From positions 124,001-188,000 of the forward strand of contig QPMI01000415.1 of assembly GCA_004431415.1 (NCBI GenBank): a DNA stretch of 64,000 nt, read 5' to 3'. A model generated the notes under the pieces. The model saw only the letters and a program-made list of their open reading frames with translations. It had not been told where the DNA came from and ran no database searches. The translations under genes and the position numbers were made by a program. The DNA comes from Cyanophora paradoxa CCMP329 (lineage: Eukaryota; Plantae; Glaucophyta). Below, piece after piece: positions 3,090-27,000 of the stretch (positions are counted from its first letter, which is position 1; the number at the start of each line of letters is the position of its first letter).

Positions 3090-6000
3090 ATGCATATGCA
3101 CACGTATAAGTATACGCCTTCCGGAACTCGAAGCTCAAGTGTCCGCTCCACCGGTTTGCTGCTTCTCGTGATGCTGTGCTTGGGGCTTCGAATTCGGGCA
3201 TCAGACGCGCGTGCGTACCATTGCATACGTACACATATGTATGCGCGTCGACGTGACCGTTAACGTTGGATCCGGATCCCGGACTTCGACAAGCGCAGAA
3301 TCTACAAGTAAGCCCCCTTCGTCAAAGCCTGCACAAGTCGTTCAGAGCGACGTGGCCACCACGAACGCTCCAAGTGGAATCAGCAAGGCGGCTGGCACAT
3401 TCTTTCGGACAGCGAACGGGAGCGCAGCTCTGCTGCTCGTCGGTTCAGCGTCTCATAACCAGATTTGGACGCTGGCTCAAAAGAACGCCAGCGCATTCGA
3501 ATGGACACAAAGGAACGAACTCGACGCAGGCATGAACATTATCACTGAAAACGTCACAAATCCAAGCGTCACATTGTCCGCCTGTGTGTGGTATGCGCAT
3601 CTACAGCCGGCGTGGCTGCTCTAGATCTGCACGTGCACCGACCGCGAATCGATCGCGATCGCGGTTTGCCGGCGCTCTGCGCCGAACTAATATAATTATA
3701 TACATATATATAACAGGGACGGGGGCAACAACGGCTACATCTACTGCTCAGGTGGAAAGATCAATAACAGCACAACGAACGTGAACTCCACGGACAAAGT
3801 TTGGCGGATGGGCAAGCTTCTAATCTTACATTGAAATGGCTGGCTTCAATCGCGAGCCGACGCTGTCCCTGCTTGCAGACACGACGCTGACCTCGATGAC
3901 GGTATTTGTGAACCCAATGCCAGCAAAAGTTCATGGTCATTGCATGGTTCGCGGCAAATGATCGCTCTGCGATTTCTGTACTGTAGCTAACCAGTACTTC
4001 ATTTCGATCTTGCAGGCTCTTCTCAACAATCAAACTCTGTTCGTGGCTTTCGGCTCCGGACCTGATGGGCCGCTCACAAAGCTCTACTGGTGGGCATGGA
4101 TATGTGCCGATGAGCTTGACTCTCCGTGATCTTTCTGACATCGATATCGATTGTCGCAGGTACGACGTGTCGCAGGGCGATCAGGGTTCCTGGAATGTTT
4201 GTGCGCTGAATATATATTAGACCGATTGCGAGGCTGATGAGTGATGACGGTACTAATATTAAATATCGATGACAGCCAATAGCACAGTTGCGGCGGGCCC
4301 GCGCGAAGGCGCTACGTGCAACCTATTTCGTGCGTTTGCTTTTCGATCTTCTGCGTGCACGTGGATACGGCGGCAATGCTCTGCGCTTCAGAGGGCAGGC
4401 TGTACGTGCTAGGCGGCAGGCGGCCGGAGATCAACGATAACGGAACAGTCACCAAGGCCTTCATGCTCCATGACCTCTGGGTGGCGGACCTCATGTCCGC
4501 CAGCAAAAGTTTCAGTCTGGTCGCATCGGACTTTGTGCTGGATTCCGTGGGAGCCGGCCTCGTCGGCTGCGGAGCCTGGCAGGTCCTCGTCCTCATGTGA
4601 GCTCTAGATCTCGCCATCCACGTGCTTTGTCGTTCGAAGGGCGAGACTTGAGCTTCAATTTTGTTCTAACGTGCAGGTCTCATAATGGTACCGGTGTCCG
4701 AGACATGCAGCAGGGCCCCATCATGCAATACCGGGTGCGCATTCAAGTCATAGAGCTCGAGTTTCCGATCGCGAACCGGAGTCACACCCCGGCACAGCTC
4801 GCATGGGGGTGAGCCCCACCAATTGTGCGACCTTCCCGCGACCATTTTCAATAAGCACATTTTCAGCATCACGAATCTCAGTCACAAAATCACAAATTCG
4901 CACTGAGCCACACTACATTTTTCAAACATCTAACCCCTCCTTACTGAAACCAATCACAAAAACCTACATATAATCTTTTCTCTAATTCCTTACCATTCCC
5001 AGTAAGCCCTTAAACCCTCCCTCGATTTCTCAGTAAGGACAGTAAGACCCCTATTTTTACGAAATGTTCCCGATCGTTTCCGGACTGTTTTCAGTTAGCC
5101 AAATTGAAAAATCAAGGTGAGCCCCACCAATTAAACAAGTGATCCCCACTTAAAGACTTCCCGATAATATACTGTAACAATGGCAAGCGATCAAGTAACT
5201 CTACCTGAGAGTAAGCAATGCAATGTATGCAACAAGGTAAAACCGGCATCGAGTTATACATTGCAAAAGGGTAGCTCAGGAAGTATACTTTTGAATTGGA
5301 GATGCAAAGTCTGCGAACGTGACTATCGCAATTACCTTTATCATTTCGTGTTAAAAACGCGTCCGAAAATCGAAGTGCAATCGAAGGTATGCTCGCACTG
5401 CAAGATTGAAAAGCCTGCAAGCGAGTATAATAAAAAACAAAGCACAAAGGATGGTCTCTACTATCAATGCCGAGAATGTTATAGTAAAACTCGTAAGAGT
5501 TAAAACCGAATTGCACTTTATCTATTCTTTTTAAAGCAAGTTTGTGCATGAGCAAGCATGCCGAAAATGCCCACCTGCACAAACTCGCGACTTCAATCGA
5601 AATGTTCCATTTAATGCACTGGAACCACTCGCGCCCCGCCCACTATGCAAGATACATGCAAACAACATGCGAGATACATATATAAATTGTTTTTCTCTTC
5701 CTATAATAAATGAAGACTCACTTTTACCATAAATATACCGGCAACAAGTATAATGAAATGGATACGATCTATCCATATATCGATTTAGAAGGAATTAATA
5801 AAGTTATAGAACCGTTTTGTGGTTCAGGTGCTTGTAGTTTCTATCTTTGGGAAAAGCATAAAGACCGGTTTGATTATTATATGAATGATAACGACGAAAC
5901 CCATACCCTTTTTTTGAATACAATGAAAGACCCAGACAATAAAGTTAAACTCTTAGAGAGTCTTAAACAGTTCGAAGCAGTAAGCAATATAGAAGAGCAT

Positions 6001-9000
6001 AAAGAAGTCTATAAGAAGTTTCTACAACATGATCGTAAAGATGCAATGGATTACTTAGCTCACCATTTCTATCTTCTTAAAAACAGCGTTTTAAATGTTA
6101 AAACCCTCCGTGATTTCAAAAAACGAAACGTGAAGGTGAGTCCATATACAACTCTTAAAAAGAAGATACCTTACGATGATTTTATTAAAGGAGCCAGCCT
6201 ATCCCATGGGGATTTTCGCGATATTGTAGCCAAATATAGAGATGATGAAGCGGCTTTTATATTTCTCGATCCTCCATACGTAAACAGCAATAATGACTTT
6301 TACGAAAATGTAGAATTCGATTTAGAAACCTTCTTTTTGGATTTGGAAGACCTATTTAAGACAGCGAAATGCAAGGTTATGATGGTTGTAAATGATGCTC
6401 TTTTAATGAAACTCCTATTTAAACCCTATATTCGCCATACGTATGGCAAAGTGTATGGTATAACAAAACGAAAAAGGAACCATATCATAATGACTAACTA
6501 TGAACTTGGTGAAAAATAACGACTCAGTCATATATATATTTCGTATATATGTCCGAACCTCCGTGTGTGTGATCCCGCACAACTTTGAATTTTTTGTGTT
6601 TTTTTTGTTTTTTTCGAAACCGCCACGCAAACCGACAAATCACTGCATCTCTTCACCAACTCATCGCCTTGCAAAACCAAAAATAGCGCCGTGACCGTCT
6701 TGACGAGGCTAACACGACCATGTAAGTATCATAGGGTCATTAAATATTTGTTTTATAATTAATAATGGATTCCCGATACCGCGGCTACCACGTTATGCTC
6801 GACTATATAACCGAGCCGTTTACTGAGTCCCCGGAGGCATGCGCCGAGTGGATCACAGCGAACCTATCGCAATATATCACAGATCGCAATATGCGCATCG
6901 TGCATCAGCACACTTGCATTTTCGATGGCTCTATTTCCCCTCCCGGTTTCGCGATTGGCTTTCTATTAGATGAGTCGCATGCCACAGCTCACTCTTATAG
7001 CGACCAGGGGCTATTAGCGATCGATATCTTTACATGCGGGTCAAATGCCGAAGCGAAGACAATGGGTATAGCACAGGACATTAACGATCTCATACAGGAA
7101 AGGCTGAAAGTGCGAAAGTGGGACTTACAGGTCGAGCAAAGGTTCCCAATTTCATAAAAAATGAAAAAAACGACAGATATATTTAATGCTCCTTGATCGG
7201 AAACTTGCCCATTAGCGGGTGATCGAGACCCATGACATACCAGGATTTCATAACGGGATCCCAGCGGGCTTTCTCAGCCTTCGCTTGATCCTTAAATTCA
7301 TAAGGAATATCGAGATAAACCTTCACGTTTCTTTGATACACTTGCTCATAGCTTAAAGTCTTGAACTGAGAGCATAGGGGGTGATCTTTCTGTGTCACAT
7401 ACCAGCAAGAATTCTCGGGATCCCACTTTCCACCGAGGGATTTCGCAACGTTCTTTTTATCATAGGGAATATCAACATAATGCTTTTCACCCTCCATCTC
7501 TTTTATATTTACCGGAGAAAATAATTTCGGGGTTTGTTATGAACGAGATGACCGAAGAATGCGCGTAGTAGGGGCTGTGTAGCTTGCGCTCTGATTCTTG
7601 AACGATTTATACCACCTCTGACTGTTTACCTCTGAGAGCTTCTCAGTTCCCGCGATCGTTAGTTTAGCGAGCTCTCTCAGCGCCCTCTTTGTCTTTTCTG
7701 CGCGATCTTCCAATAAAGCCCCTTTCGGAACACTTGCGGCGACATCTATGCCTTCCTTTTGAACCTGCCGGATCGAAGCTGCCTCTACATCAGCCGCTAA
7801 AATAGCGTTGCCTGATGGCTCCACCACAGCCTCGACCTCTGTAATGATTTGCAATTCGTGCGGCTTAAAAAGCTTCGGCATAACGTTCCCCGCTGCATCT
7901 TGCACCTCTATCGCGTTTCCTCTCCTTCCCGCAATTTTGTAGACCTCTCGGCTATACCTTTGAGTCGCCCCTTTATCGAATTTTGATCTCGGCAATAACA
8001 GGCGGACGTGGAGACCCGGCTTAAAGTCGCTGAATATATCCTTTACGATTGTGTTCTTCCTTGAAATAATAGCCGCTCGGATCCGCTCCATATCAGAAAG
8101 CTTAACATCTGCGGGTTTCATTCCTATGGTTCTGTGAATGGTGTTATTATAATTGAAAACGAAGTCGTCCAGCTTGTCCATAAACCGCACAGTATTATAT
8201 GCGACACAGTAATTGTTTATCATCGTTTTTAGGGTCAAATGAAAGCGATTCATTATTCCCAGCGAAGTGTGATCTCCGACCTGTTTAAAGCGGTGCTCTA
8301 TTCCATTGCTTTTAACGACCTCCTGAAACTCCTTCGCGATGAATTCTGAGCCGTTATCTGTCTCCAATCGAATCATCGGAGCCGGGAGCTCTGTAAGCAT
8401 CTCCGCAAAAGCGGCGGCAACACTTGCGCCCTCTTTGTTCTTTAACTTCTTGGCATATGCTTTTCGGCTTGTCATCTCGATGAGAGTAAGGACTGCAATG
8501 TAGCCGGAATTATAGCTGCCATATGAGAGATAAAAGATGAGATCGGCTTGGTAGCACCACGGCGGGGCTGTGATGGGAATAAAAGCTGTTTGGGTCGGTG
8601 CGGGGGCTTCTTGTTGATCTGCATAAATTCTTGTTTCGCTGCGACATCTTGCACTTCTTTTAATGTGAGGGTCTTGTCCTCTTTTCTCAGCTCTTCGTAT
8701 ATCGCGGACGGGTTCTTAAAACCTGTCTTCGGGTCATACATGCGTCGCACGATCTTAGAGGACGGGTTAGCAATGCTAAAAGGAACATCTCCTAATAAAT
8801 TTGATTTTGCTTGGCGTTTTGTGATTTTTTGGGGGACTTGCTCAGTTTCAGGAACCGCGATAGGTAGAATGGTGGTCTCCGTTTCCTCGCCCGCTACCCT
8901 TCTGACGATCCGTGACATTCTTCTAATTAACCCTGTTTATTTTTTGCTGCAATTGCACCCGTGATGCGCGAGTTGACAATTGTCTTTAAGATGTGGGCGC

Positions 9001-12000
9001 TTATTATTGATGCGATCCACGACGAGCCTATAATTCGGATCTTGCGGCTCAATCGGAATCGGAAGGGAACAGATCGCACAGGCGCCCTTCTGTTGCTTCT
9101 TGCGCTCTAATATCCACTCCGGCGTAATATAATCCGCTTCGTTGAAATCGCGCCCGGCACGCTGATCCTGGCATTTATATCCGCGGATCTTCGTTTTCAG
9201 ATATTCGATGTAGTCGCTCTTTCCTTGGAACTTGTGAATCGGTGTATAAATCAGCACAGTGGACAGATCGCGGTTACGAGTGAGAGCGGTATAGAACCAT
9301 TCGCGAGTGGTATAGCGGAACGTAGCCTCACAAATGACAATGCCCGAATCAAGTGTGAGACCTTGCGTTGAATGACCTGTTCCTGCATAAGGGAGAGAAA
9401 AATGTTCTAACATCGCGCACGGAACCTCGAACGTGACGCCATCGAAAACGTCAGTTAATGTGACCATTTGCTTGGTGATTTTGGTGATTCGATAGGTGTA
9501 ATTCGTGTATGCATTAATAGACTCACCCTCAGACCGCGAAATGCGTAGATACCTGCGACAAACGACCTCCAAACCCTTGTAGAATTTGATGCCGTTGACC
9601 TCTACGGTTGCAATATTTACTTTTCGTCTATCGTGCATCAGTTTGTTATAGGCTAAGGTCATTTCGTTTCTGTAAGCGATGCCAAAGTAGCCGTCGGGAA
9701 TGGCGCTTAGATCATTAATTGTCGGCAACCCGTATTTCGAGATAATCTGTGAGGCTTCGAGTCCGTTTTCGAAGAGATCCTCTTTAATCGCCCGAATTAA
9801 TTCACGGTCTGTCTCCTTCTTGTGCCGCTTGTTAATGCGTAGACTCAGGACGTTAGGGAACATGCTCTGCACAGCGCGCTTATAGTAGCCCTTGCGATCA
9901 GAAACCGATAGCTCATCATTAATCGGTTCGTTCTGATAGGTATCGCCATTAGCCAAATATTTGATATCCGGATAGCGATCGATAAACGACTTGATCTTAG
10001 CGAGATCTTTTACAGAATACGCGAATATCTCGTCGAACATAATGTGGCTGAACTCGGAGACAAACGCCCTCTGGTCTTTTTCGCTCATAGCCTCTTCGTA
10101 GGTCTGATCATTTGAGACACGGATCCCGAGAACATTATACAAAGTGCGAACGGTAATATTCTCGATTCCGCGGACTTTGAGAGAGTCCCTCAGCTCTGCG
10201 CACTGTTTGTTATAGGGGCAAATGACTAAGCAATTTGACTTTTGAGAGGCAAAGCAATTAATACCGAGGGTCGACTTTCCACTTCCGGGCATGTCAGCAA
10301 GGACAAGCATACGATTATGGAGCTCCGCAACCCAATTAAAGCACTCCGGATTAAATTCGTCCCTCAGCGAGAACCGGTTAATGAGTGTCTCGGGATCCTG
10401 AAATTCGAGAGTTACACCCCGTGGTGGGCGGAGTGCATTCTCAGGGCATCTTTTCCCGGGAATATAGCTGAATTTGCCCATGTTCTCAAACGCATTTCGG
10501 TCGAACTCTTTCTTACTTGTCCATGAACCTTCGATATATAGACAGTCCGTTCTGATCCCGGCAACCTTGTGCCCGCGCGCTGTCAGGCGCTTGTATTGCG
10601 CAAACATATTAGCACGGTTGCGATCGTAAATATGAAAGTGGATAGGAAGGAATCCGTTAACGAGCTCGCGGTGGGAGCTGATCTTAACGAAATAGATGTG
10701 ACCTTCGAATTCGCTAAGAGTTTTGACACGTTTCGAATTCTTAGGATTGAAAGTAAACACCTCTACTGTTCCTCCGCATTCTTGGGCGAACCTCTCAGCC
10801 TCGGCACGGTTGTAGAACATTTTCGTGGATGTTTGCGAGTCTTGGAATTTGCCGAGCATTCCGATCTCTTTCACTAAAATATGCTTCTTATCTGTGGTTT
10901 GAATGTCGCTTGACAGCACTTTTTGCATCTCAGCGATCGACGTATTGGGCACCAAATGCGAAGGCTCCGCGACCGCGATAATCTCTATCTTGTCCTTTAC
11001 GTCCGCCCAATGCATGGAGAGAGTGTAGCCTGTCATGAAATTATAACAGCGACCACTCACGGAAAATGCGCGATCCAGAATAATTTCGATTCCATCAATC
11101 TTGCGAGACATGGCGGCATCATAATCTATGTCCTCATCGTCGGCGAAAGTCGCTTGCTCTTTCTCAAACGCAACCACACGCACGTAGTAGATTGCGTATT
11201 CGAGAATATCGCTTCCCGCTTTAAAGGGAACGAAGTCATCGAATACATTGTATTTCGGAAGATATTGCATGCCTTTCAGTATCGAAGGGTAGCACTTCGC
11301 CATATCGACAGCTGTGTAGGTAGCTTTCGGGTTCGGCTTATAGAAATAGCCGCTTAGTGCGGATCGCTTGTAGTGCGTGAGAATTTCGCGCATGTTCGGG
11401 CTGTAATGTGAGATATTCGTGGTATTCAGTAGCGACTCCCGGAAACCCTTACCGATTTCACAGACCTTATTATAATACTCTTCTGTTTCGAAATCTTGCT
11501 CAATAAAGTGGTCGGTTGTGCGTGGATCTTTGATAGAGAACATCGAGCCATTAGCTTTGAATGTGATGCTGTCGATTTGTTTCGATGGCGTTAGCTTCAC
11601 AGCGGGCTCATATCGCATTTTCAGGAACGTAAATAGAAGACCTTCCAGACCTTCGCGCCCAGTATAAAGAATGCGGATGAAACTGCGCTCGTCGGGCGAT
11701 AGTTTAAGTTGCGTGATCTTTAACAAATCCTTGGATGTGTGCGCGAAGATATCGTGAGTAAGACACGTCGGAATTTTATAGAGTGCTAACGAAGAGGTCG
11801 ACTTAGGAACATGATTATCGAGCTCTTCGACCTCCATCTTCGCCATGCGCATTTCGAGCGACTTGATGTTATCGTTGAATATATAGATGTGCTTGTTGTG
11901 AATCATAAAGTGAATATTGCGGGGATTGATATTTTTGTTAATTGATTCCGCCGCGAATTTGTATACTAACTTTCCGTCGACATCAAAGACGCGGAAGCCT

Positions 12001-15000
12001 GTCTGGATTCTCTTACAGAATTTCTCGATGTGGCGGAGCGTGAGAGCCAGAGAGTCGCCAGGTGTGCGTTCACGACCGTGAAAGAATTTATAGAGACCGT
12101 CGTACGACATAGTTAAGTCAGTATATCGCGGTTTTGGCGCCTCCTGACACTTCTTAATGGACGCTCCCCATGTGGAGATGATCATATCGTAGCCGCAAGC
12201 GTTAGATGTCGATGATTTGGGAAGCTCAATAATATCTTCGAACTCAGACGCGTTTGGATTTAATGTGTAGTCTGTGAATTTGCTCATAATCGCGGTGCAT
12301 CGCATGCTGTCCATTAGCTCCTCATCCAGAAACGCATAGCGATTGCCAGGGATAGCACCGGCTCCGTCATCTTCGACACCTTCGTCCCCATCGATCACGA
12401 CCTCATGAACAGTTATAAAGGCATCATCGACACTGCCGCCAAAATCATCGAAACCTTTGCGTAGTTTTTTCTGTTCCTCGGTTGGTGGTGTCTTAAAGAA
12501 GAACATCTCGTATGCTTGTCCGAAAGTTCCCAGACGAATCTTCAATTCATCGTAGTTTTCGAGTAAATCGAAGATTGAATCTCTCTCTTCCGAATAATAA
12601 CGATTTTGAGCGGTGAGAATTCCATACACACTATCGATTTTTGCCAGAGCAAAGCTTCGCAACACACTCACCGAAACTGTCTCTCTTAGATTGCGGTAGG
12701 TGACAAAGGTTCTGTCTGGCATATTTGATTCGGGAATTCCGGGAATAACAATTACCTCCGACGACCGAGCACCGGATCCAGGTCCCCATAGCTTGAACGT
12801 AATTGTTGCGAGAGTTTCCGGATCATATTGGGCGATTGGATCGAGAATAATGCGTTTAATCGCATCCTCTACCGCTTTTAGTTTACCTCTCTGCTGCTTC
12901 GCTTCGAGTTTCGCTTCTTTCGCCCGTTTCTGTTCTCGTTTGCGATCGAAGCGCTGTAAACGCTTCGCCTCTTGTTCTTTTTGCTTTTGCTTTTCTATAT
13001 TAACTTGGGTGCGAGCGGCGCGCTTTTCTTTCCGCTCTGCCCTGCGGAAAACGCGGGGATTAATGATGCCATTCAGAGTATCCCGAATGTCGATCAGCGT
13101 TTGGAGCTTGGGCTTCCGATTCATTGTGTTGTGCATCGCCCAATGCGCCTGTTCTTCGGTTAGCAAATCCTGACTCAATCCCTGCATAATGTATCCGATA
13201 ATTTCATCCCGAACATTGTTAGCGATTCTGTTGGTTGCGCGCGGCATCTCTATTAGTTCTTTTAAAATAACCGGAGAAAATAATTTCGGCGCAATCTACC
13301 AAATTCTCCTTTTCATACCCTTGTCGCCAATTCTTTAAGTGCTTTTTGACCGATACGGGGAATAAAAAGGGAGGTAAAAAATTAATCATTTTTTGCATCG
13401 TGCGGATACTTTCCGCTACGAAGTTTTTGCGTTCTCGACGACATGCTTTCGGGGTCTTCCAGCGGGCTTTTGCGGCTGGGGCTTCACCGGCGGATTCAGC
13501 TTGCGTTCCGCTCTTTTCCTTCGTTGGTATTCACGTGCCTTCTCTCGGATTTTCTCCCGATACTCTTCATCGTCTTGGTATCGCTGCTGTTTACGAATTG
13601 CGATCTTTTGTAGCTGTTCCGGTGTGAATATAGTAGCCTCTCCGGCGGCTAATCGCTCTTGCTTTTGTCTCTGATGCTTGTTTCGCTGCCGCTCTGCATC
13701 TTTCTCGCGTTTTAGTCTTAATCTCTCCGCTTTCTCCTCTTCTGTGATCACCTTCTTCGGTCGCCCTGGTCTGCGCTTTTCTTGCTGTGCCGCCATTGCC
13801 TCTTGGTTTGAAATCTTGGGTTTCGCCATTTACTATAACCGGAGAAAATAGTTTTTTGTCACTCTGTATTATTTCCCTTGCCCTTATATACCTTTTACCG
13901 AAACCTTCAATTTTTGCCCTTGGCTCGATACAAGCGCCACCGAAATTCACCGCTCAATAACCGTTCCAGACGGTTCTTTCTTGTTGCTGAGGATATACAT
14001 AAGGTTGCTGAGGATAAACATAAGGGTTCGTTACATTTTCATCGTCGCCTAATGGCATTTGATCCAATCTATACATCGGATAAGGGGAGTCAGCGCGCAA
14101 ATGACCTTCTACAAATTCGGGACATGAGCGCCTTCTAATATGCTCTACATGCACGTCCTCTATCTGAGCGGTTTCGATATTAGAACTCATAGCCGCGGGC
14201 ACAGGCGAAGGCGATCGAGATCGTGGGTGGTTGTGATTGTCGCTGTGGTTAGAATATACAGAAAGGCGCCTACCTCCATTCTCGTCGTCAGAAATATTAA
14301 CCTCTACGGTTGTGTCGCAGCAAGAGTTGTGGCACGTGCTTGTGAAATGCAAATGAAACATTTCAATGCATTGTGTGATGAAATTCATCGACCCTACAAA
14401 TGGGCAACGTATTAAATATCGGAGAAAATAAAAGGGAATGAGGGCTTTACTTGCTCGTGTGTTCCCATACGAGTTAGTCGACCTTATAATGCTGTTTATG
14501 GAGCCGACCTGTCCCTTTTGCAGGGGAGTCCACATAAAGACCCGCTCTAAATACGGGCGGGTTCAGCTTTGCCTTGCGGATATTCACAGTCATTAGCGGA
14601 TATGGCGTTTACCACCGAGCATTGCCGCGAAATTCGCTGGTGCTGTCGGCACTATATGTGCATATTGCGGGGCAACCGATTGCTGACGAGTTACGGCTTG
14701 TGCATCTGTTTTTTCCTCCTTTTTAATCTCCTCTACGTCGACTTTTTGCTTTAATCCGAGTTTGGAGATCTCTTTCTTCACGAGCCCCTTTAATTTCTTG
14801 CGTTCGTTATAATCTTGCATCCATTTCTCGTAGTTTGACACTTTCATTTCAAGGTCTCGCACTTTCTCTTCAAAGCTCATGACAACGTCGACAGGAACCG
14901 TGTGTTTTTGATAGGATCCGCGCTTTTTGAGCTCAGTTTCGGCGGCTTTCGGGACGTCTTGCGTTTTGTGCTGGCTTGCGACAACTTGCGCTTTAATTAC

Positions 15001-18000
15001 TTTGTCGGTTGCTTCATCAACAGAGCCGCCTCCAATCTGTGGTTTTACAGTAGCTAAATCGTCCATTTGGCGTTTACCGCTATCTTGGTTTCCCTTGTCC
15101 GCGGTGGCACTCGCAATAATCGCCTCTTGCTTGGCGACCTCCTCTGGCGAAGTGTCTATAAGATATTCGGGCATTTCGAGACCGCCGCCCGACGTTAATC
15201 CAGACTCTTCAAGTCCGCGATTAGGATTACCAGAAGCGACCGTTTGAATGGTTTGAGGCTTCTTTCGGTAGACCATGATTATCTTTTCTTACACTTGATT
15301 AACATTTTCTTTTTCTTGGCGAAATTTGCGAAAGTTTGGGATACCTTCAAGCTCACGCTCAAATTTGGATAAAGTTTTGCATACAGTTGTCGAATCTTTG
15401 ACAGGCGGCGGTTTTGTCGCTTGCTCCTCTTGCTGTTTGCGCTTCTTTTCTTCAAAAGCCGCCCGCTTGTGGAATTTAGTAAACGGATGGTCATCGATCA
15501 TATCGGCTTTTTCGACCCACCATCGCACAGAATACCCGGTATTATCGTGAATGATCGCTTGGTAGCTATGACAGAATTCTTGGAACATGCGCTTGAAACT
15601 CTCTTTATCCATGTTCCCGAACTCTTCGTGATATGCTTCAAACTCTCGCATGTTTGACCAGCTTAGGAATATGATATACTCCGCATTGCTGCGAATGATC
15701 GTTGAAAGCTTTGTTAGTTTCTGCGATATTAAAGCCACGCTGCAAAAAGTATGACGACCTTGCGCCATCAATTTATTTAGCAAATGATCGCGCGAAAGAT
15801 CGATAGTTCCGGACTCCAAACAATCGTCGAGCACAATGAGAATATTCTTTGGTTTCTTACCCGCAATGATAGCCTTCTTGCGGGCTTCTATGATCGACTC
15901 TACATATTCCGGTTTCCAGGTATCATGCACTTCGTCTGTAATTTGTCCCCAGAAACCGTTGAAACTCGTTGGACAAAAGACCAGAACGTATGAGATCTGG
16001 TCTTCGAGTTCTTTGATCAGCCACTTTAAGAATACCGATTTACCACAATTGGTTTTCGCCAATAGGAGAAATCGTGCGGGAAGTTTCACCCTCTGTTTCG
16101 GGTTCCATTCTTCGAGATCCATGGGCGTCGTCCCTTTTTGCATTCTTTCACTATAAAAACAATAGAAAAATAAGACTGAATGTGGTAATTGGTTTAGATT
16201 TCGTTTAGGATCGCTTTATCACCCAGAATTTCGGCGGCTTTCTCATTGTAAAATCGAGCTGCGTCTTCCTTTGTGTCACATATTTTGCGCCATCTCTGTT
16301 TGTTATGCATGAAATTCGCTTCCCACTTTCCAGATCTCGTTTGATTGACACCACGATAACCACTCGAATTCGTTGATTTCAGCAATCTACGAGTTAGATT
16401 TACAGGATCCACATCATTAAGAACCGCAAGATCGCCGAACAGTTCGGTTGCTTTTGCATTGTATGCTGCTGCGGCTTCTTCTTTCGTGTTGAAGCATCCG
16501 AGATTATAAGAAATTCCGTTCTTTTGAATTTCAGCTCTCCATTTTCCAGTGTCTTTTCTCTGCATCACTCCTTTGAGACCTGACTTATTTGTTCGTCTCA
16601 CGCCAGTGTTAATGACGCTCTCTTGCGGGGTTAAAAAGCGAAGATTGCAACGCCTATTATCCAATTTATCTCTGCTAATGTGATCTACAAAGTGCCCATC
16701 GCGGCTTCCCATAATCCACTTGTGCATGTCAATATTCTTGCCCTTTCCAACATAGCCCCATGCGTAACCTCTGACATTATGAAAATACCACTTACTGATT
16801 TTAGTGACATGCTCATAGTCTGCTTCATCGACAAGCGCAAATTTGCCTTCTCCATGCTTCCCATTAAGTGCGATTCGCCTAATGCCTTCCATTTGTCCGC
16901 CGTATTCCATAATACTGTAAATTGTCTTGTCCTTAAATGGGCAAAAGATAAAAAGAACGTCATTTTTTGTCCGACGAATTCCTTAGCTACTTACACGCCT
17001 GATTCCGTCGGCACCAATTATCATTATGTTATGAGCGAGGGCAATGCACTGAATTTGCATCTTCTGATAAGCGGCACCCGCATACCATTCTGATGAACCT
17101 TCGGCTGCCGTTGTGACACCGTTGAATTCGAAGACCAGATCGAACGCCGATGTGCCTGTGGCATCGATGTAGCCCGTGTTCTCTTGGTTGAGAAGCGACG
17201 CCTTTCCGTTTCCAGCACCGAAGTAAATGCCAGTGAGAGCGGGGTAGCTTGTGCTCTCGGTGAAAATCGCCGAATTATATTTATCTTGAAGTTCGGTCGC
17301 GGCAATCATGAGAGGAAGCGAAGTATTCGAGTAAAGGCGGTTATTGTTGAGTTCCACATAGAAGCTTACGGCGTTGGTTCTGAGTGCACGAGGAGCCAGA
17401 ACGGAGAGAGTTCCGTTGTTAACCTTCGTCTTCGCGTTTTGGCGCACAGAGAATACGAGAGTGTGGATGAGACCCGCACCTGTGAGTTGCGAGAGATTGA
17501 CTCGCGAACCGGAGGCGGTCGGCTGGAAATCTGTGTGTAGGAAACCGATTTCGTTGTAGGGGATCGCGATGCCAGTCGATTTAACACGGGCAATGGTCTC
17601 AGATACAACCGCCTCATCGGCATTTACGACCTTGCAAATAACGCGGGGTTTCAGCACTTGAAGGGAAGCGCCATTGTTGGTTACCGCAATATTAGCAACA
17701 TTGTTTACATCCTCAATGATACCATCCCCTTGCGCCTTGAATTCGATTTCTACTGTGATCTCAGAGTTCAGAGCGCAAAGTGGGAACATCGCCTTCTCGA
17801 AAGGAGAGGGTAAATCGATTTCGTAGGTTCCACCGACAGTGTTACCAGCGGTTCCGACAAGACCACCCACATAGCGAAGTTTCTTATCGAGTTCGCCCTG
17901 TTCGGTCATCAGTAGAAAATACTGGGTGACGAAATCCTCTGGGACAACATAGCGGAATGAAGCGTGAGAGATTTCAATGCGCTTAATTAGCGATCCAATA

Positions 18001-21000
18001 ACGCGAAGGTAGCCAGTAGTTCCAGCGACACCATTCGTGAGATCAGTGAGGGTGATCGGGTTAAGGTCGAGTTGCAGCGCGAGACCATTCAGGAAATGGT
18101 AGCGGGGGATCTTGAAAACTACTCGGTTACCGAGGGCATTGGTTGGTTCGGTATCGGGGGCGACCAGAACTCGAAGTGGCTTAGTGCCAGAGGACGTTCC
18201 AATGACCAGCGACTTGTTTAGGAAATAATCCTTGTAGTCATCGGTGGTGAGCATAGATTTCAGCGTTGGGCGCTGGAATTGGCTGTTAGTCTCCATGAGC
18301 GTTTCTTCTCTTATCTTTGGGATCAGAAAATAATTTACAGGGCTCAATAGAAATTCATTTCGGGCGGTGCGTCGTAGGTTTCGATTTCAAAAGTGAAATA
18401 ATGCGCCCAAACCCGAAATCTAAGAGAGCGCCATCATGGTCGATGAGTTTAATCGTGAGGCGGTCGAAAGATTTTAATTCGCGGAATTCACGAATGAGAG
18501 GCACCGTAGTGGACGTGTCGAAGTGGTAGATATCACCATGTTCGAGTTCCTGTGGGATTGGAATGCGCATGAAATAACCATCGACGTGCTTGTTGACTGA
18601 GCGAATAAACGGCGCAAATTCATCAATATATAGCCAGATCATCGCCGCCGGGGTCTCATCTCCACGAGTATAGCCGCGAATGCGTCGATTGAGTATCACA
18701 GTTCCCGTCCCAGGATTAAACACAAGGAATGTATCGCTTGCAAAAGGGGTAAATGTCTCGTAAACATATAGCTGAATATCTTTGAAACCGAATATTGCGA
18801 GTTTCTTAGCGATTGCTTTGCGATTACTGGATTTTCTGAGTGTTTCAGGGGAAGCTTTGGAGAACTTGAACCAAAAGTTACTATCACTGAAAAACTCATA
18901 GATCTTTGAAGTAGTATTATAGCGGCATTTAATATATTTTCCACCGAAATCTGAAAGGCGAGCTGCTTCGAGTCTTTCTGTGACTTTTGCGGCAAGGTCG
19001 TCTTTGGTGTAAAATCCTTTGGGGATTGTGATGGTCACGAATCCGGAATCCGAAGCTGTGACCGAGAAATAGAGTTCCATGCGCTCGATGGTTGCACCAG
19101 TGGCGTCTATATCATTTGTCACGGTCGAAAGAACATTGGGAACCGTTGCCTGCACCAGGCGCACCGATTTTACGTTGTCATAGCGACGGGGTAATGTCAC
19201 TACATACTGGTTTGGCTGTGTAAACTCCTCGTCGCGATCATCGCTCGAAAAGCTCAGGTATTCTTTCATCTTACTATAATAGATTATGAAAAGAATAACA
19301 ATAAATTGCGACAGTAGAGACCTTGAAAACGGCGTGCTGCACTTGAAAACGCGCCTTAATAATGTTCGACGATTTCGTGTGCTATCCGCTGAGATTCCTA
19401 ATAGCTCTTATGTTGTTCCGCCCGATCAGACAATAACTATAACGCTTCTAAACGAAGAGCCCACAGTAATCCCCGCATCCAAAATGATAGCACCGATTCC
19501 CAGCGTAAACGATTATTATTACGTCGATGCTGATAACGAACGATATCCAAAAGAGAGAGCTCTAAACAGTGATGCTTTACTCGGATTTGCGGGCGGTTCT
19601 TTTGATCCGCTCGGTCTCTTCCCGGTTTCCTATTCTCTCGCTCTGTCTACGAACCGCTTCGTGTTCTCATCTCCGAATAGCCCTTTTACATTAGAGTCCT
19701 CAGACCAGGAGTTCTGTGACTGTCTCGGCATAGAACCCGGAGTGGTTTACGCCAGCACACCAGAACCAGTGCCGGTTCCACTCAGAGATTACCCCAGTCG
19801 CTACGCGATTATATGCCCGAAAATGGTCGACTTTAATGCAATTCCATATATTTACCTTGATATCGAAGAGCTCCGCCCGTTTACCAAATTCGCAGCGGTT
19901 ACTGGGAGACAGAACAATTTCGACGACTCCTATCTATTGCGAATTCAGATGAACTCGGACTTTGGTAGATATTCCTTTTACCACGAACCGAGCGCAAGCA
20001 TCCCTTTCGTAAATGTCACATCGCAACTCGATTTAGATCGCCTCACAATTTCGCTTCGAAAATGGCGGGGCTCTGTTGCGGATATAAACGGTCTCTCATT
20101 CTCGTTCCAGCTCGAAGTGATCACCGATTAAGCGCTGTCACACGTAGTAGCCCTCGAAATCAATTCGGCATGCCGAAGCTACGTTTGTCGAGAGCACCCA
20201 GATTACGAGGGTTCTCACAGATCTCGGGTTTGCTAAGAAATGTTCGTCGGGTTCTACACTTCCGGCTATTTGATTTGCATTTGTAAACACTCTCGTCGCG
20301 CCGGCTTCTGTGTATGTGACAAGCGCCGAAACTCCCGGAGTTAATTGGTAATCGATTTCAAACGTTTTAATGTAGTTTCCATTTGCAGCCGGCTTCATTT
20401 TTATAGAGGAAAGCATAAACAGACGCGGAAAATCAATGCGTAAATAATTGCCTCCCGACCTACTACCTTGCGGCGGGTTAGTAAATCCCACCCACCCCGT
20501 AGCATTTGACCAGCGGGCATCAGAAGCTGTGCCAAATTCCGCAATAAAGGCGCTATTATCGAGCGGCACCCAGTTAGACTCCGGGGGTGCGCTTACATCT
20601 GTGCACCCGGACAGATTAATAATGGGAACGTCTCCCTCTGATATATTCATCGTCAGCACTGAATACATCGCATTAAAATACGTTTGCTGTGCGGAAACAA
20701 ACGCGAGCGCTTCCGTTTCTAAATATTGCAAGTGCGTCGTTGTGATAGTATCGAGGGTCATTTTATCTTTCGGTAAAGGAACGCTCAGCTTATAGTAGCG
20801 ATCGTAATTCTGATCATCGTTTCTGGGTAAAAGTTCCAGCAGCTTTACGTGGGCATTTAGATCGCTCGACTCTAAGAACATGCTGAGAATTGGCGATCCT
20901 GTGGCGCCTAACATCCATTGCACGATCCCCCAATTTTTCATAGTGTCGTACGAATATCCAGATGTCGCCTTATCAGAGTCTTGGACGTGACCCGCCGTAA

Positions 21001-24000
21001 TCGAGACCACGATAAGCTCCTCCTCGCAAGAGTTTCCGAATAAAGTGCGGGCGAATGTGTAGCCGCAAACCCGGGCGAATTATTTCCACTCATGCAACCA
21101 TCAATTAAACAGTATGTTCTTCCGGCGACTGTGACTTGTTTCGGCTCGAAATAGGTCGGAGCAGCCGAGGTAGCCCTTGCAGCATCGCGCACAAGCATCC
21201 CATTAATATCTTCATCATTGCTTGAAATAAAAACGGGGGACATTTGAACCGTGTCGAACGCAGTCACGATGGTGGGTTTATAGAGATCCGCCATAGTCGC
21301 TGAGCCGCAGAGTTCCAGAGCCACAGCTTCTAAATTCGTGGCTTCATACTTGGGGCGTTGCACAATCGATGTAAGCACTCGTGGATTCGCGAAAATCAGC
21401 GGTAGTTTCGCTTTGTAGAGCGCCAGAATATCAGTAGCAGTATATTTAGGGGCGCCATCGGTTCCCTTGATATTCAAAAGGAGCGCGATTAATCCACCTG
21501 TGGATGTTCCCGCAAAGCAGTCGAATAGCTGTTGGATTCGTTTACCGGTTTGGGCTTCAATCTGTGCCAGTATAGCAGCCTCGATTATTCCACGCGACCC
21601 TCCACCACTCAGACATAAAACGGTCTTCATTATCTTATATACTTCTTATATATCTTCTTTGTTTATAAAGAGGATGTCGTTCCTGAATCCGCGACCAGAC
21701 GCACGAGTTATTAATTCGACCACTCAGATAGAGGACACTGATCAGGTAAACACTGAAATTCGCGGGTCTCTGAGAATAAATTACAATGCAGACCGCGAAG
21801 ATCCAGTCAGTGGGACACCGAGCAGACCCGCAGCTTTGCAGTTAATGAACGTCGAGAAAGGGGATCATAAACTTGGAATCGACTTTTTACTTGATGATAA
21901 CGAACGAAACAGAGTCGCCAGCATTCAGGCAACCCGCCAGCTACCGAAAACGGTGCGATATAATCGCAGGAACATCCCAAAAGCATTCGATAGAGGTCGC
22001 TTAAACTTCTTCATTCAAGATGAGAGCGGTTTCCAAAATGCAGCTATGAGAATCGTGGATAATAGCACACTTATAGCGGGAGTATCCACACGGAAAACAA
22101 AGGTAGAGGTCGTCCATGATCTCTCAGCAGGTAATCTAACGACGAGCAATATTACAGCAAGTAACATCACTACGGATACCCTAAATGTAAACTCGCTCAA
22201 CTCCGAGTCGTTTTTCGCCACCAATGTCGCAACCTGTAACCTAAACATCGAATCCTTTGTGATTCAGAAGAGCGAATCGGTTCCCCAGATAACAGAGGGT
22301 GTTTTCACATTAGACCCCGCGAAACCGACCTTAGAAATTGTCGAAAATGGGAACGTTGTCGATATAATTGGCGCCAATGCTCCGAATGTGAGATCCTTAG
22401 CACTTGATAAAACGACTATATCATTTGCAGAAGAAATTCCGGCTTTTACCACAGAGAAACAGGCACTGAGAACAGACCATGTTCACATAACCAGAGACAA
22501 TATAAACGATCTTTTAGGCAAGGACATCGTAAAGGCGTTTTTGGAGTTTGAAAGGAGCAAGAACACCAAAGATTCCAGCCAGGATGGAACCCTCACGACC
22601 CACACAACCGAAATCGCGGCTTTGCAATCAGAAATTAATGCTCTGTTTGCAGCAGATGGAGCGCTTGCAATAACCTTAGCCCATATTCTATCGAAAAGGA
22701 ACATATACCCCGCGACTGACAACACATACCGAGTTGGTTTATCGAATCTGAGATGGTCAGAGTTGCATGGAGTTTCCATGTTTGCCTCCAATTTAATCCT
22801 TCCATTTAATCACTCACTCCGACCCAATCAGATTCTCACCAGTGATAATGCACTGATCAGCTACACTGACTTTAATAGTAACCTTTCCCGATCAGTTTCG
22901 CGGACTGAGACCTACGAGGTCACAGGCTACCCGCAGAAATTCGCAGGTCTCGAAGTTTATGTAGTTTATGCAGACAGTCCAACATACACATTTACTTGGG
23001 ATCAATTGGGTGTCACAGGTTTCGAGACTTTACCTACGGTTACCTTGGTCGATCATACAGTTTACTTTAATCAAATCACTTTGACTGATGAATATAACAA
23101 GGCATATGTCCATAATATCACCTCCACAGGGTTTCAGGTTTTGTTCCAATATGTTGGAACAAATACTCTCATTATCCGGAACTCGTCACTGAACACCATA
23201 GCTAATCTGAGTTTCACTCTTACTGTCAATTATGTCACCCCTGTATTCGATAGCAAACCCAGAGTAAAGGTTTACCGAGATTTACAAGGTAGCAATATCG
23301 TGCCCTTCTCACAGAGTTTCGATCTTGGCGCGAACTCTTTAAGGTGGAACACAGTTTATTCTTTGAGTGCAAACACCTGTAATATTGTAGTCGCAGGTTC
23401 ATCGGCTACTATTGGAGATCTGACCGCCCCTTTTAAAAAGGAGTATCTTAAAGAACTGTATATTACAAAGTCTGATTTACCAGATGCTATTTCGTTGGTG
23501 CTCTCCCCGACTCCCAGCATATCATACCACAATGTGAAAGACACAAGTAATGTAGTGCAGAGGGGAAGTAAAGTATTCCAGGCATCCGAGATAGGATCGG
23601 TCTCATATAGATATCTTGCAGGGGTTCCAGCGAATTTTAATTTCACATTTGAGACACCATTTGTTTCCCCTCCTACTATTGAAATAACAGACACGAATTT
23701 GTATGTGGTCAATGATGGGTCAGCTACATCACTTCAAAATGCACCAGCCGGCTACTCCCCATTTGTTGCAACTAACATAACAACCACCGGCTTCACACTT
23801 GTCGGAAATGCAACAGTGACATATGCTCTGACATCATACCCTGTTGGGTTGTATTTTGCGAAATTTAATCTCTCTGTTATCCCAGCAGTTTCCCTTTCTC
23901 CTCCCTTCACTGTGAGTTGGAAGGCAACAGGAACTATTCCGCGATTTGACCCCGAAGACCGATTAAAAATAAGGTATCCTCTCGATGTTACCGACATTCA

Positions 24001-27000
24001 TACTACGAGGATCAATGGGCAGAACTTCGTATTTAATGGAACCAATGCTACTCTGATCGATAATCGAGTAACGAATAATTACTTTTTCGATTCTCGATAC
24101 ATTAATACTTGCAACATTGTCATACATAAAACGTTTGAGGATCGCAGTAAGACCTTAACAGTCACCTTGCCCACTCACTCGAATGTCTCAGATGGATTTT
24201 ACTATTATCTGTTAAATCGCTATTACACCTCTTATATTCCATATCCTTCTGAGACTGTCAGCATGAGCTATCCCAAAGTCACCCTAACATCGACCAATGC
24301 TGACTTCTTTGGATCCACAGACTTCATGAGAGACTTCTTTTATTTTACATCCTCCACAGATGGTCTCTTAGTTTATTACTCTTACAGATATGAGTCTATT
24401 GCTACCCAAATTGACAGCCACCCAAACACAGATATCATCACAGCAGGCGATAAGAAATATATAAAAACCGCTTCCCCATGGGTTTGCACTGTAAGGCTCG
24501 ATGACAGATACACTCCTAACCTAAATAACATTGGATTGCACTCGACATGCAATATTTATGTGCAAGGTGCGATTTCGGCTACCAAATATTATGAGGGCGG
24601 AAATTGTGATACAGGACATAGGTTGCTATCGCGAAATGGACTCTTTGAGTCATTCAGTGGGACGGCTCTACCGCCCTTTATCAGGGACACAGTCTATGAT
24701 ACCACATGCAATATTTGGGTGTGTCGATCTGTGAGTAATCCGCCTGTGACACAGGAATTATATAAATATCTCTCAGATACCTATGGGGCAATCACAGGGT
24801 CTTCAACAGGAAATCCAGCGACGGCTCCCATCGTGTTTGCAAATGCATACACAGCGCCGACATCATTAGCAGGGTCGACAGAGCCGCCACCAAACGATCC
24901 CAATCCGAACCAGCCTAACCCAGATCCCGATTCAAAAGATCCCCCTACAACTGATCCACCTTACACTCCACCCACAACAAATAATCCCACTCCCATTGGG
25001 GCGCCGCAAGGAGGTGGTAATGGGATAGGTGGCTTGATTGGGATAATCTTGGGCGCGATTGCAGGTGCAGCTTTACTTGCTCTTATGTGGAAGTATCGTA
25101 GTTTATTCTTTGCATGTTGCTATAATGCAGGGGCAGCATACTCTACACCAGAAGTAGGTTTAACAGAGACACCTGATGGTGATTTAGGTGTAGAGATTTC
25201 CAGACCAGAGGGGAATTCTCTTAGTGTCATTAGAAATGGCAGGAGTCCACAGGATCGAGGAGCATTGAGATCAGGAGGAGACAGTGATTTTATGTCCGAA
25301 ATAGCACAGCGAGAAGGTAGGGTCTATGAGCATGTCCCCAATGTGATGTAAAATAAACCTTCTTATAATAGAAATGACAATCATATCCAATCCCACCTTT
25401 AATAATAAATACTATGTTACAGATCCAGAGATACCCTCGGCTCAAAATGATCTTATAGTTTCACACACCCCATACTTGGGAGAAGTCGTTAAAGATTCAT
25501 GGAATGATGTAACGGGGCATGAATTTGGGCATCTATACGATATTCAGAGTGGGATAGGCTATGTCGATGCATTAACAGGGACAGTTTTTCGCAATCTTAA
25601 CTGTAATTGCACGGGAGGGTGGCTGTTTCAGACATGCAGCAATGTCGCCTCTGATCTTGATCCCGCCGAATACATTACTACGGATTTATATGGTGGGAAA
25701 ACGATTTTCTCCATCACTTGCAATCTCGTAAATTCGGATGTGCCCATAATAGCACCTGTAATAGGTGCATCCAATATGTATATCCAAAGAAATCCGGTCG
25801 TGCATACAGGAGCTGAATTTATATTGGGCGACAACACCCCAATCAGTCGAATCGAACTACCCAATTCTCACAAGCATTTGTGGGAACATATCACCAATGC
25901 CCCATTAACCTATCCACCCAGTTCTCACGAGCATTTGTGGGAGCATATCACCAATCGACCATTAACCTTCCCACCTGATCCACACACTCATGATTACTTG
26001 TCTCTCAAAGGTGGTGTTATCTCATCTAATCTTACAATTTCATCAAACCTTACAGTTACAAGTAACATTTATGCCAGTAACATTTATGCCAGTAACATTT
26101 ACAGCAGTAACCTATGGGCAAGTAATATTAATGGAAGTAATGTAATAGTCGATTATCTCACTGTGAAGATTGAAGCAAACCTACCAAATCATCCGACATC
26201 GAATGTTGTTTTAGATTGGTTAGCAAAGCAAAAACACACAAAAGCAGATATTACAGATTTTGCCCATAATCACACAAAAGATCAAATAACAGATTTTGCC
26301 CATAAGCATTTATGGAGGATATCACAAATCCGCCCTCAACCTTCCACCAGGAAACATTCCCATGATTATTCAGAGATTACCAATAGTAACCACAGGCACC
26401 CATGGGAGGAAATAGATGAGCAGCCTACTTTCGCACAATTGAATGCAATCGGAAACGTTTTTAATGGAGTCACACTTTACCAATCCATTAATACACCTGA
26501 AAGGCTGTTTTTGAATGATCATTATGTTAGTCTGAATGGGTCGTTTACAGGTGAAACAGGCACACCTATGGTGGGAACTCTTGCAGTAAGATTACCACGG
26601 GATCCAATCGTAAACGGAGTGTATAGTGGCGATTTCAATGTAGGAGTAAATGATACTTTCCCCAGTATCTATGTTACGAATTATCACCCAGGAGAAATAG
26701 GACAAGAAGCGGATTTTTCAGCAGCAATTCAAGTAAATGTAACAGATCAAAGCGCATATGATGGAGCAAGACCTAAGATTGTGTTCACAAGGGAGAAAGT
26801 TGTAAACTATCTTCCTGTTGTGGGACAACCCACAGATGATCACGGTAAATGCGAGATTGCATGGATTAAAACAACATCAGGAGGCGCCTTAGAAGTCAAT
26901 CAAAGAATGGCGGCGAAAAACTTACACAATACAACCCTTTCAGGTGTGGTAACAGATGATTACCTCGAAAGCAAAAACTATGTAGATGATACAGAACTTG

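Follow-up and report, generated by a model that had tools for sequence, protein, structure and literature searches.

A predicted arginine decarboxylase and an optional DNA methyltransferase as probably independent cargo of an endogenous Polinton-like virus in Cyanophora paradoxa

We analyzed a stretch of 64,000 nucleotides from the glaucophyte Cyanophora paradoxa CCMP329 (contig QPMI01000415.1, positions 124,001 to 188,000 of the forward strand; hereafter the window), which harbors an endogenous Polinton-like virus (PLV) whose first two genes inside the left terminal inverted repeat (TIR) encode a DNA methyltransferase and a decarboxylase with the fold of S-adenosylmethionine decarboxylase (AdoMetDC). 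An earlier note on this DNA had proposed that the two genes form a module acting on S-adenosylmethionine (SAM) or on DNA modification. Sequence comparisons point instead, with a probability that we put at roughly 0.62, to two independent pieces of PLV cargo, i.e., a long-resident predicted arginine decarboxylase and an optional, likely recently gained protective methyltransferase, while a SAM-manipulation module is not supported. The features concerned are the following, in coordinates of the window:

4797..31076: endogenous PLV of 26,280 bp, member of a multi-copy family in the host, with TIRs and a target duplication.
5674..6511, plus strand: optional methyltransferase cassette; sibling contigs connect 5673 to 6512, 6515 or 6524.
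5710..6519, plus strand: D12 (alpha-class) DNA amino-methyltransferase, 269 amino acids (aa), PF02086, GC content 0.33, GC content at third codon positions (GC3) 0.33.
6765..7157, plus strand: class 1b AdoMetDC-fold pyruvoyl proenzyme, 130 aa, PF02675, GC3 0.56, likely an L-arginine decarboxylase (SpeDA).

Both open reading frames (ORFs) are intact, co-oriented on the plus strand and 245 bp apart, adjoining at the left end of the PLV as the earlier note had described. Of 24 runs listed for one organism, 20 contain the PLV, and its sibling copies, known from contig fragments of sequencing runs and not from a whole genome, include many divergent contigs in all four host runs. In each of these four runs, sibling contigs lack 838-850 nt comprising the whole methyltransferase gene, with 8-20 other letters inserted and the decarboxylase-side junction retained; the shorter side of the joints measures 40 letters in X3 and X5, and 24-30 in X1 and X20. 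Loose contig ends before position 6756 in X3, X5 and X20 indicate a further upstream context for the decarboxylase. Since all four runs contain such methyltransferase-less siblings, the pairing is not fixed, and the joint inheritance expected of an obligate module is not seen. The methyltransferase is also compositionally foreign to the PLV core genes, with a GC3 of 0.33 as opposed to 0.49-0.55 in the integrase, replicase, ATPase and capsid genes and 0.56 in the decarboxylase; two fibre genes are low as well (0.41 and 0.30). We infer that the decarboxylase is the resident gene and the methyltransferase a later insertion; the joints are also compatible with a loss of the methyltransferase from some copies. 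The adjacency of the two genes likely reflects a variable slot beside the left TIR.

The decarboxylase matches PF02675 (E 1e-11) and carries the E70/S71-H72 cleavage site, H76 and FTC91G, with S71, H76 and C91 aligning with T. maritima S63, H68 and C83. An alignment-based AlphaFold2 model reaches a predicted local distance difference test score (pLDDT) of 96, superseding a single-sequence model with a pLDDT of 59, and in Foldseek resembles the class 1b AdoMetDC structures 2iii and 1tlu (TM-score about 0.72-0.75, E about 1e-7); against BFVD it has distant matches with identities of at most 22%. Searched by itself against a word index of proteins, the decarboxylase had no match. The gene is under purifying selection: among the sibling variants listed, which are tool-filtered, 12 of 14 are synonymous (expectation 22-28%, p about 1e-5 to 1e-6), and pseudogene status was rejected on this ground. 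The earlier description as a prokaryotic-type pyruvoyl AdoMetDC thus holds for the fold, the E/SH site and FTCG, while the name AdoMetDC is not confirmed, as the protein scores 48.8 bits on TIGR03330 (cut-off 75.65) and groups with SpeDA-type sequences. The absence of a spermidine synthase from the PLV, also claimed before, is confirmed by Pfam on its 21 ORFs and by a tblastn search of the window with SpeE from E. coli.

Among 1.84 billion representatives searched for homologues, 293 matched at E <=0.001, and 497 loci were matched in GTDB, the best 80 of which were used for all neighborhood counts. These 80 are all archaeal metagenome-assembled genomes, most of them with Poseidoniales or Marine Group II (MG II) in their titles, and have a DHS/SpeY-like gene downstream in 79 cases and an agmatinase-like gene upstream in 28, these two calls having been checked by NCBIfam at one locus each, where the expected family was the best match, below its cut-off. 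Neither SpeE nor a methyltransferase match lies beside any of the 80, and no spermidine synthase was found in 98 loci beside relatives. The window decarboxylase shares 44-46% identity with five MG II proteins. Profiles of MG II proteins (two profiles, 7 proteins) give it 112-117 bits, and a canonical AdoMetDC-like profile built from 7 sequences, three of them from phages with AdoMetDCs reported as validated, gives it 47 bits. Two trees (109 and 41 rows), drawn from 240 domains on hand with MG II and lower-ranked matches subsampled, place it on the MG II side, and the smaller separates it from the seven canonical sequences with support of 100/99. Proteins from Poseidonales and MG II/III encoded in speB-speD-speY clusters are reported to decarboxylate arginine, not ornithine or lysine, as do homologues from the stramenopile algae Nannochloropsis and Tribonema, which form one clade with the archaeal enzymes; the two assayed archaeal SpeDA failed to complement delta-speD (PMC10407285). 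SpeY is reported to couple agmatine (PMC13625781), and speY marks homospermidine clusters. Because its closest prokaryotic relatives share the lineage and gene order of proven SpeDA, the substrate of the window protein is probably arginine, in line with the remark of the earlier note that some AdoMetDC homologues are arginine or ornithine decarboxylases.

Protist-type members of the family (P0008, P0018, P0037, P0038, P0046, P0051, P0122 and P0027) are fused to PQ-loop transporter domains, to NNMT plus DHS-like domains, or to SET domains. In 57 of the top 150 matches, picked by rank or length, we counted PQ-loop fusions in four proteins, DHS-like in five (one below cut-off), NNMT in three, SET in two (one below cut-off) and arginase in one; the same 57 proteins contain no fusion to a spermidine synthase or a DNA methylase.

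The decarboxylase is found in further viruses, mostly without the methyltransferase. A family profile recovered 18 IMG/VR contigs with the decarboxylase, and methyltransferases were sought by Pfam on 111 adjoining ORFs (17 contigs) and 76 more, and by running six methyltransferase queries with tblastn against every locus. A directly adjoining methyltransferase is present in one contig (L097) and absent in 17; in L081 a D12 enzyme lies about 4 kb from the decarboxylase, and in L085 an ORF with an NPPF motif lies about 4.5 kb off. A PLV lineage of 19-20 kb (L092, L093, L094 and L098, with the metagenome relatives L109-L114), as well as L089, carries the decarboxylase and no methyltransferase in the 4-16 kb read. 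At least 19 metagenome loci, at least four of which repeat IMG/VR contigs, add no new adjoining methyltransferase. As to co-occurrence, which the earlier note had suggested as a check, a neighboring methyltransferase is rare among the viral contigs and missing from some siblings of the window PLV; adjacency does recur in L097 and in a phage discussed below. The viral decarboxylases branch apart from the window protein, though a single origin is not rejected (p 0.058), and a predicted SpeDA-type gene is present in at least three PLV-like lineages beside that of the window (four with it) and in giant-virus contigs. The two genes are adjacent in two of these four PLV-like lineages, in one of them facultatively, a sample too small either way because most PLVs have at least one methyltransferase among some 20-25 genes. 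In the giant-virus contigs L087 (919-1305) and L088 (8440-8817), an Atg8-like gene adjoins the decarboxylase.

The methyltransferase matches PF02086 (E 6e-16, 59.3 bits, cut-off 22), with EPFCGSG and DPPY, and its motifs X, I, II and IV are ordinary-looking and in alpha order. On the Dam model TIGR00571 it scores 50.5 bits, below the cut-off of 114.85, and for this reason the name "Dam-like" given to it earlier, and even "adenine", are uncertain, whereas the motifs and the Pfam family are as described. GATC specificity was rejected on the same score and because GATC is undepleted in the PLV (152 vs 129 expected). The closest solved structure is 7m6b (E 9e-9), which we take to be M.CbeI, ahead of EcoDam (E 2e-4, profile). 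M.CbeI is annotated as D12 and has DPPY, yet makes N4-methylcytosine (m4C) in GGCC (PMC3425538); with such a relative, the target base of the window enzyme may be adenine or another.

A second line of evidence bears on what the methyltransferase may be for. Six restriction-type motifs have nearly vanished from the PLV (4797-31076), namely CTNNAG (0 sites, 77.9 expected), GGCC (0, 38.9), CTAG (1, 38.3), GTAC (2, 54.7), GGNCC (4, 36-55) and GGAN7TC (5, 49.8), a depletion that survives correction for the about 56,000 spaced patterns screened by many orders. CAGN6TG and GTCN4CA are more weakly depleted, and the other 13 palindromes of four bases, among them GATC, occur about as often as expected. 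Codon bias was rejected as an explanation by 200 synonymous-codon shuffles, which for the five motifs examined left a minimum of 16-52 sites, and the host flanks show no depletion of the six motifs. In the Aureococcus anophagefferens virus, CTAG and CTNNAG are N6-methyladenine motifs, its methyltransferases are described as ORFs of their own that lack an accompanying endonuclease domain, and other Imitervirales have predicted enzymes of the CTNNAG type (PMC12700378). The purge suggests selection by sequence-specific nucleases, probably those of a giant helper virus, the alternative being avoidance of methylation itself, and nuclease pressure of this kind would give the methyltransferase an ordinary protective role. 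Other PLV-like contigs (L128, L131, L132 and L089) have depleted four-base palindromes of their own, such as GTAC in L132 (0 vs 29 expected) and TGCA (11 vs 71) and AGCT (6 vs 39) in L128, and PLVs in general may thus avoid motifs.

As a possible course of events, the proenzyme would cleave itself at E70/S71 to form its pyruvoyl group, and the mature decarboxylase would convert L-arginine to agmatine, which, while replication is under way, host or helper-virus routes could turn into putrescine, homospermidine or spermidine. The sequence-specific nucleases would be those of a co-infecting giant virus, and the methyltransferase would shield viral DNA at one more motif, still present in the genome. 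The polyamine supply using host enzymes that the earlier note had listed as one of three alternatives would be retained in this scheme as a polyamine route, with agmatine from arginine as its likely product in place of decarboxylated SAM (dcSAM) from SAM. Tentatively, and with less than even odds, the two genes may be set in a wider conflict in which the PLV family and a giant virus equipped with several restriction enzymes are engaged in an arms race: six motifs would have been erased, the methyltransferase cassette swapped, and arginine redirected into agmatine during co-infection, to the gain of the PLV or to the loss of the helper.

Several observations weigh against independent cargo with arginine as the substrate, and those on the decarboxylase bear on two other assignments. 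The smaller tree, whose ingroup was picked by likeness to the window protein and which left out the validated algal-virus AdoMetDCs, still allows this protein to be joined to canonical AdoMetDCs in an approximately unbiased (AU) test (p 0.118); its link to the assayed SpeDA enzymes is one of lineage and gene order, their own sequences being absent from the comparison; of the two positions considered for the published "gamma" proline marker of AdoMetDCs, it lacks the HxxP proline and has the PxG proline, as do all 80 MG II proteins; and the validated AdoMetDC of phiYS40 has no proline at either the exact HxxP or the exact PxG position. A true AdoMetDC that, like those of large algal viruses, makes dcSAM for a spermidine synthase of the host, with the methyltransferase again as independent cargo, would have the same fold and the same catalytic Ser, His and Cys; the two activities are described as hard to separate by sequence (PMC10407285), and validated class 1b AdoMetDCs are reported from HaV01 and Yellowstone Lake phycodnavirus 2 (PMC9992855). 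The score under the TIGR03330 cut-off, the profile scores (112-117 vs 47 bits) and the neighborhoods of the best 80 of 497 loci (speE in none, a speY-like gene in 79) nevertheless make this assignment unlikely, and with it the first alternative of the earlier note, in which SAM depletion by the decarboxylase would counter methylation and which would moreover need a pairing that is not fixed. Rather unlikely, too, is action on another amino acid, be it ornithine or the substrate of the protist members fused to PQ-loop or NNMT, to give a small amine. The nearest neighbors in the tree are unassigned or protist-type, several of them PQ-loop/NNMT fusions (support 81/96), and none is tied to an assayed protein; both assayed eukaryotic members are, however, reported as arginine-specific (PMC10407285). 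Ornithine itself was rejected, as the window protein has none of the four SpeDC residues (Gln, Thr, Phe and Tyr; positions from the text of Fig. S5, not from Fig. 8).

The remaining objections concern the pairing and speak for a coupled module, in which SAM is lowered or dcSAM made by the decarboxylase, and the methyltransferase either benefits or places a non-methyl group on DNA. The genes are adjoining and co-oriented, and among the joints listed none removes the decarboxylase and no methyltransferase-only copy was seen, so that a one-way dependence is possible. Adjacency is seen again in L097 (4324-5309), a 16-kb PLV-like contig in which the SpeDA-type gene is followed by a 165-aa amino-methyltransferase of an unrelated family (PHROG 799), and in Croceibacter phage P2559S (L133, 356-2808), where an ASCH-domain gene and an N6/N4 DNA methylase overlapping the AdoMetDC gene form one run. 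The P2559S AdoMetDC is reported as validated (PMC9992855), and this run is a better candidate than the window for a dcSAM-linked DNA modification module. Yet the methyltransferases of the window, L097 and P2559S belong to three different families in differing gene order, and that of the window has ordinary motifs X, I, II and IV; methyltransferase-less siblings in all four runs, the differing base composition and the 17 of 18 viral contigs without an adjoining methyltransferase argue in the same direction, and less SAM would presumably hamper the SAM-dependent enzyme of the PLV itself. Coupling in the window is accordingly very unlikely. Like SAM depletion, dcSAM-dependent base modification, the second alternative of the earlier note, would need a true AdoMetDC, which is unlikely, and a fixed pair, which fails within the family, given the siblings without a methyltransferase. 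Purge and methyltransferase could also have another cause, if the DNA methylated by the enzyme were that of the host or of a helper virus, at a motif avoided by the PLV itself, e.g., GGCC. This motif is wholly absent from the PLV and is the one in which the closest structure, 7m6b, presumably makes m4C; specificity is, however, not transferable at about 26% identity, six purged motifs exceed one enzyme, and the purge spans genes far older than the cassette, all of which leaves this explanation highly improbable. Independent cargo, with arginine as the probable substrate, remains the reading that we prefer.

The PLV has a size within the 15-40 kb range of such elements, TIRs, a target duplication, an A32 ATPase and an integrase. 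Its TIRs of 863 nt each are 100% identical when inverted, the 6-bp target duplication GGCACA flanks it at 4791-4796 and 31077-31082, and its GC content is lower than that of most of the flank of this GC-rich eukaryotic host. The other features of the element are:

4797..5659: left TIR, 863 nt, including a 107-aa Cys-rich zinc-binding ORF (5180-5503).
7183..7497, minus strand: DUF5710 protein (Pfam), convergent neighbor of the decarboxylase.
7537..8918, minus strand: rve-type integrase (Pfam), in two reading frames in this copy.
8937..13247, minus strand: replication protein of 1436 aa, with an SF1-helicase-like C-terminal part (weak Pfam) and partial PolB-like motifs.
15289..16143, minus strand: A32-like packaging ATPase (PF04665, E 2e-10).
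16194-16910: HNH-AP2 endonuclease gene, between the ATPase and the capsid candidate.
16983..18296, minus strand: major capsid protein candidate, atlas score 0.97-0.98 to viral clusters.
30214..31076: right TIR, complementary to the left at 100%.

The atlas clusters of the capsid candidate have Capsid_N in 12-18% of their members; the candidate itself has no match in Pfam or PHROG, nor to the capsid of the L092 family. Other PLV genes include a patatin and fibre-like proteins. The frame split of the integrase is a genuine lesion or an assembly error. The 107-aa Cys-rich ORF lies inside both TIRs (5180-5503 and 30370-30693), and sibling copies carry a diverged version of it as well as several TIR deletions. 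Three minus-strand genes share a motif immediately upstream (7499-7530, 13258-13289 and 13826-13857), possibly part of a promoter. Scans of IMG/VR with the decarboxylase, the methyltransferase (singly and as a 3-sequence alignment), the capsid candidate, the ATPase and P0157 gave no usable close-relative locus.

The pair is probably no new system, which removes a tempting lead, while SpeDA-type genes in PLVs bring the smallest eukaryotic dsDNA viruses into the range of viral polyamine metabolism. For the conflict that has been proposed between PLVs and the restriction systems of giant viruses, the near-complete disappearance of six motifs provides direct sequence evidence that can be tested; such losses offer a route to matching an endogenous PLV with its helper and, if the arms race is true, the missing motifs would predict the restriction enzymes of that helper. 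Literature searches found no earlier SpeDA-type gene in a PLV and no paper joining S-adenosylmethionine decarboxylase with polinton; the word "decarboxylase" is absent from the main text of the PLV surveys searched, while preprint supplements may list PF02675, and "polinton" and "virophage" are absent from the supplement of PMC9992855. Because class 1b AdoMetDCs are known from large algal viruses (PMC9992855), the earlier statement that no such pair was known in a PLV-sized eukaryotic virus needs qualifying.

The window decarboxylase shares with the SpeDA clade of Poseidonales, Gimesia, Solirubrobacter, Nannochloropsis and Tribonema (PMC10407285) the class 1b fold, the Ser-His-Cys set and the lack of a spermidine synthase partner; unlike its members, it belongs to a small eukaryotic DNA virus, has no adjoining speY or speB, and is known from its sequence. 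Polyamine enzymes reported from viruses comprise phage AdoMetDC, arginine decarboxylases and ornithine decarboxylases, the class 1b AdoMetDCs of the two large algal viruses named above and the pyridoxal phosphate-dependent arginine decarboxylase of chloroviruses (PMC9992855); in these too a single viral enzyme is predicted to raise the supply of polyamine precursors, whereas the AdoMetDC-fold enzymes described there as tested from eukaryotic viruses are true AdoMetDCs of large viruses, unlike the product predicted here. The methyltransferase has the motif order X-I-II-TRD (target recognition domain)-IV with DPPY in common with the D12 enzymes EcoDam and M.CbeI; unlike EcoDam it falls below the Dam family cut-off, and no cognate nuclease gene adjoins it. 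Phage T3 SAMase attacks host SAM, an idea shared with the module proposed earlier; its fold and reaction differ, and the window decarboxylase probably does not use SAM. Dam-group enzymes are reported near A32-ATPase transposons of Trichomonas (PMC4738411), and most PLVs are described as having methyltransferases, with a proposed role in protection against restriction-modification systems of giant viruses (10.64898/2026.06.19.733378). The window PLV likewise carries a stand-alone amino-methyltransferase and differs from those PLVs in that presence and absence of this gene are seen among its own siblings, together with a purge of six motifs.

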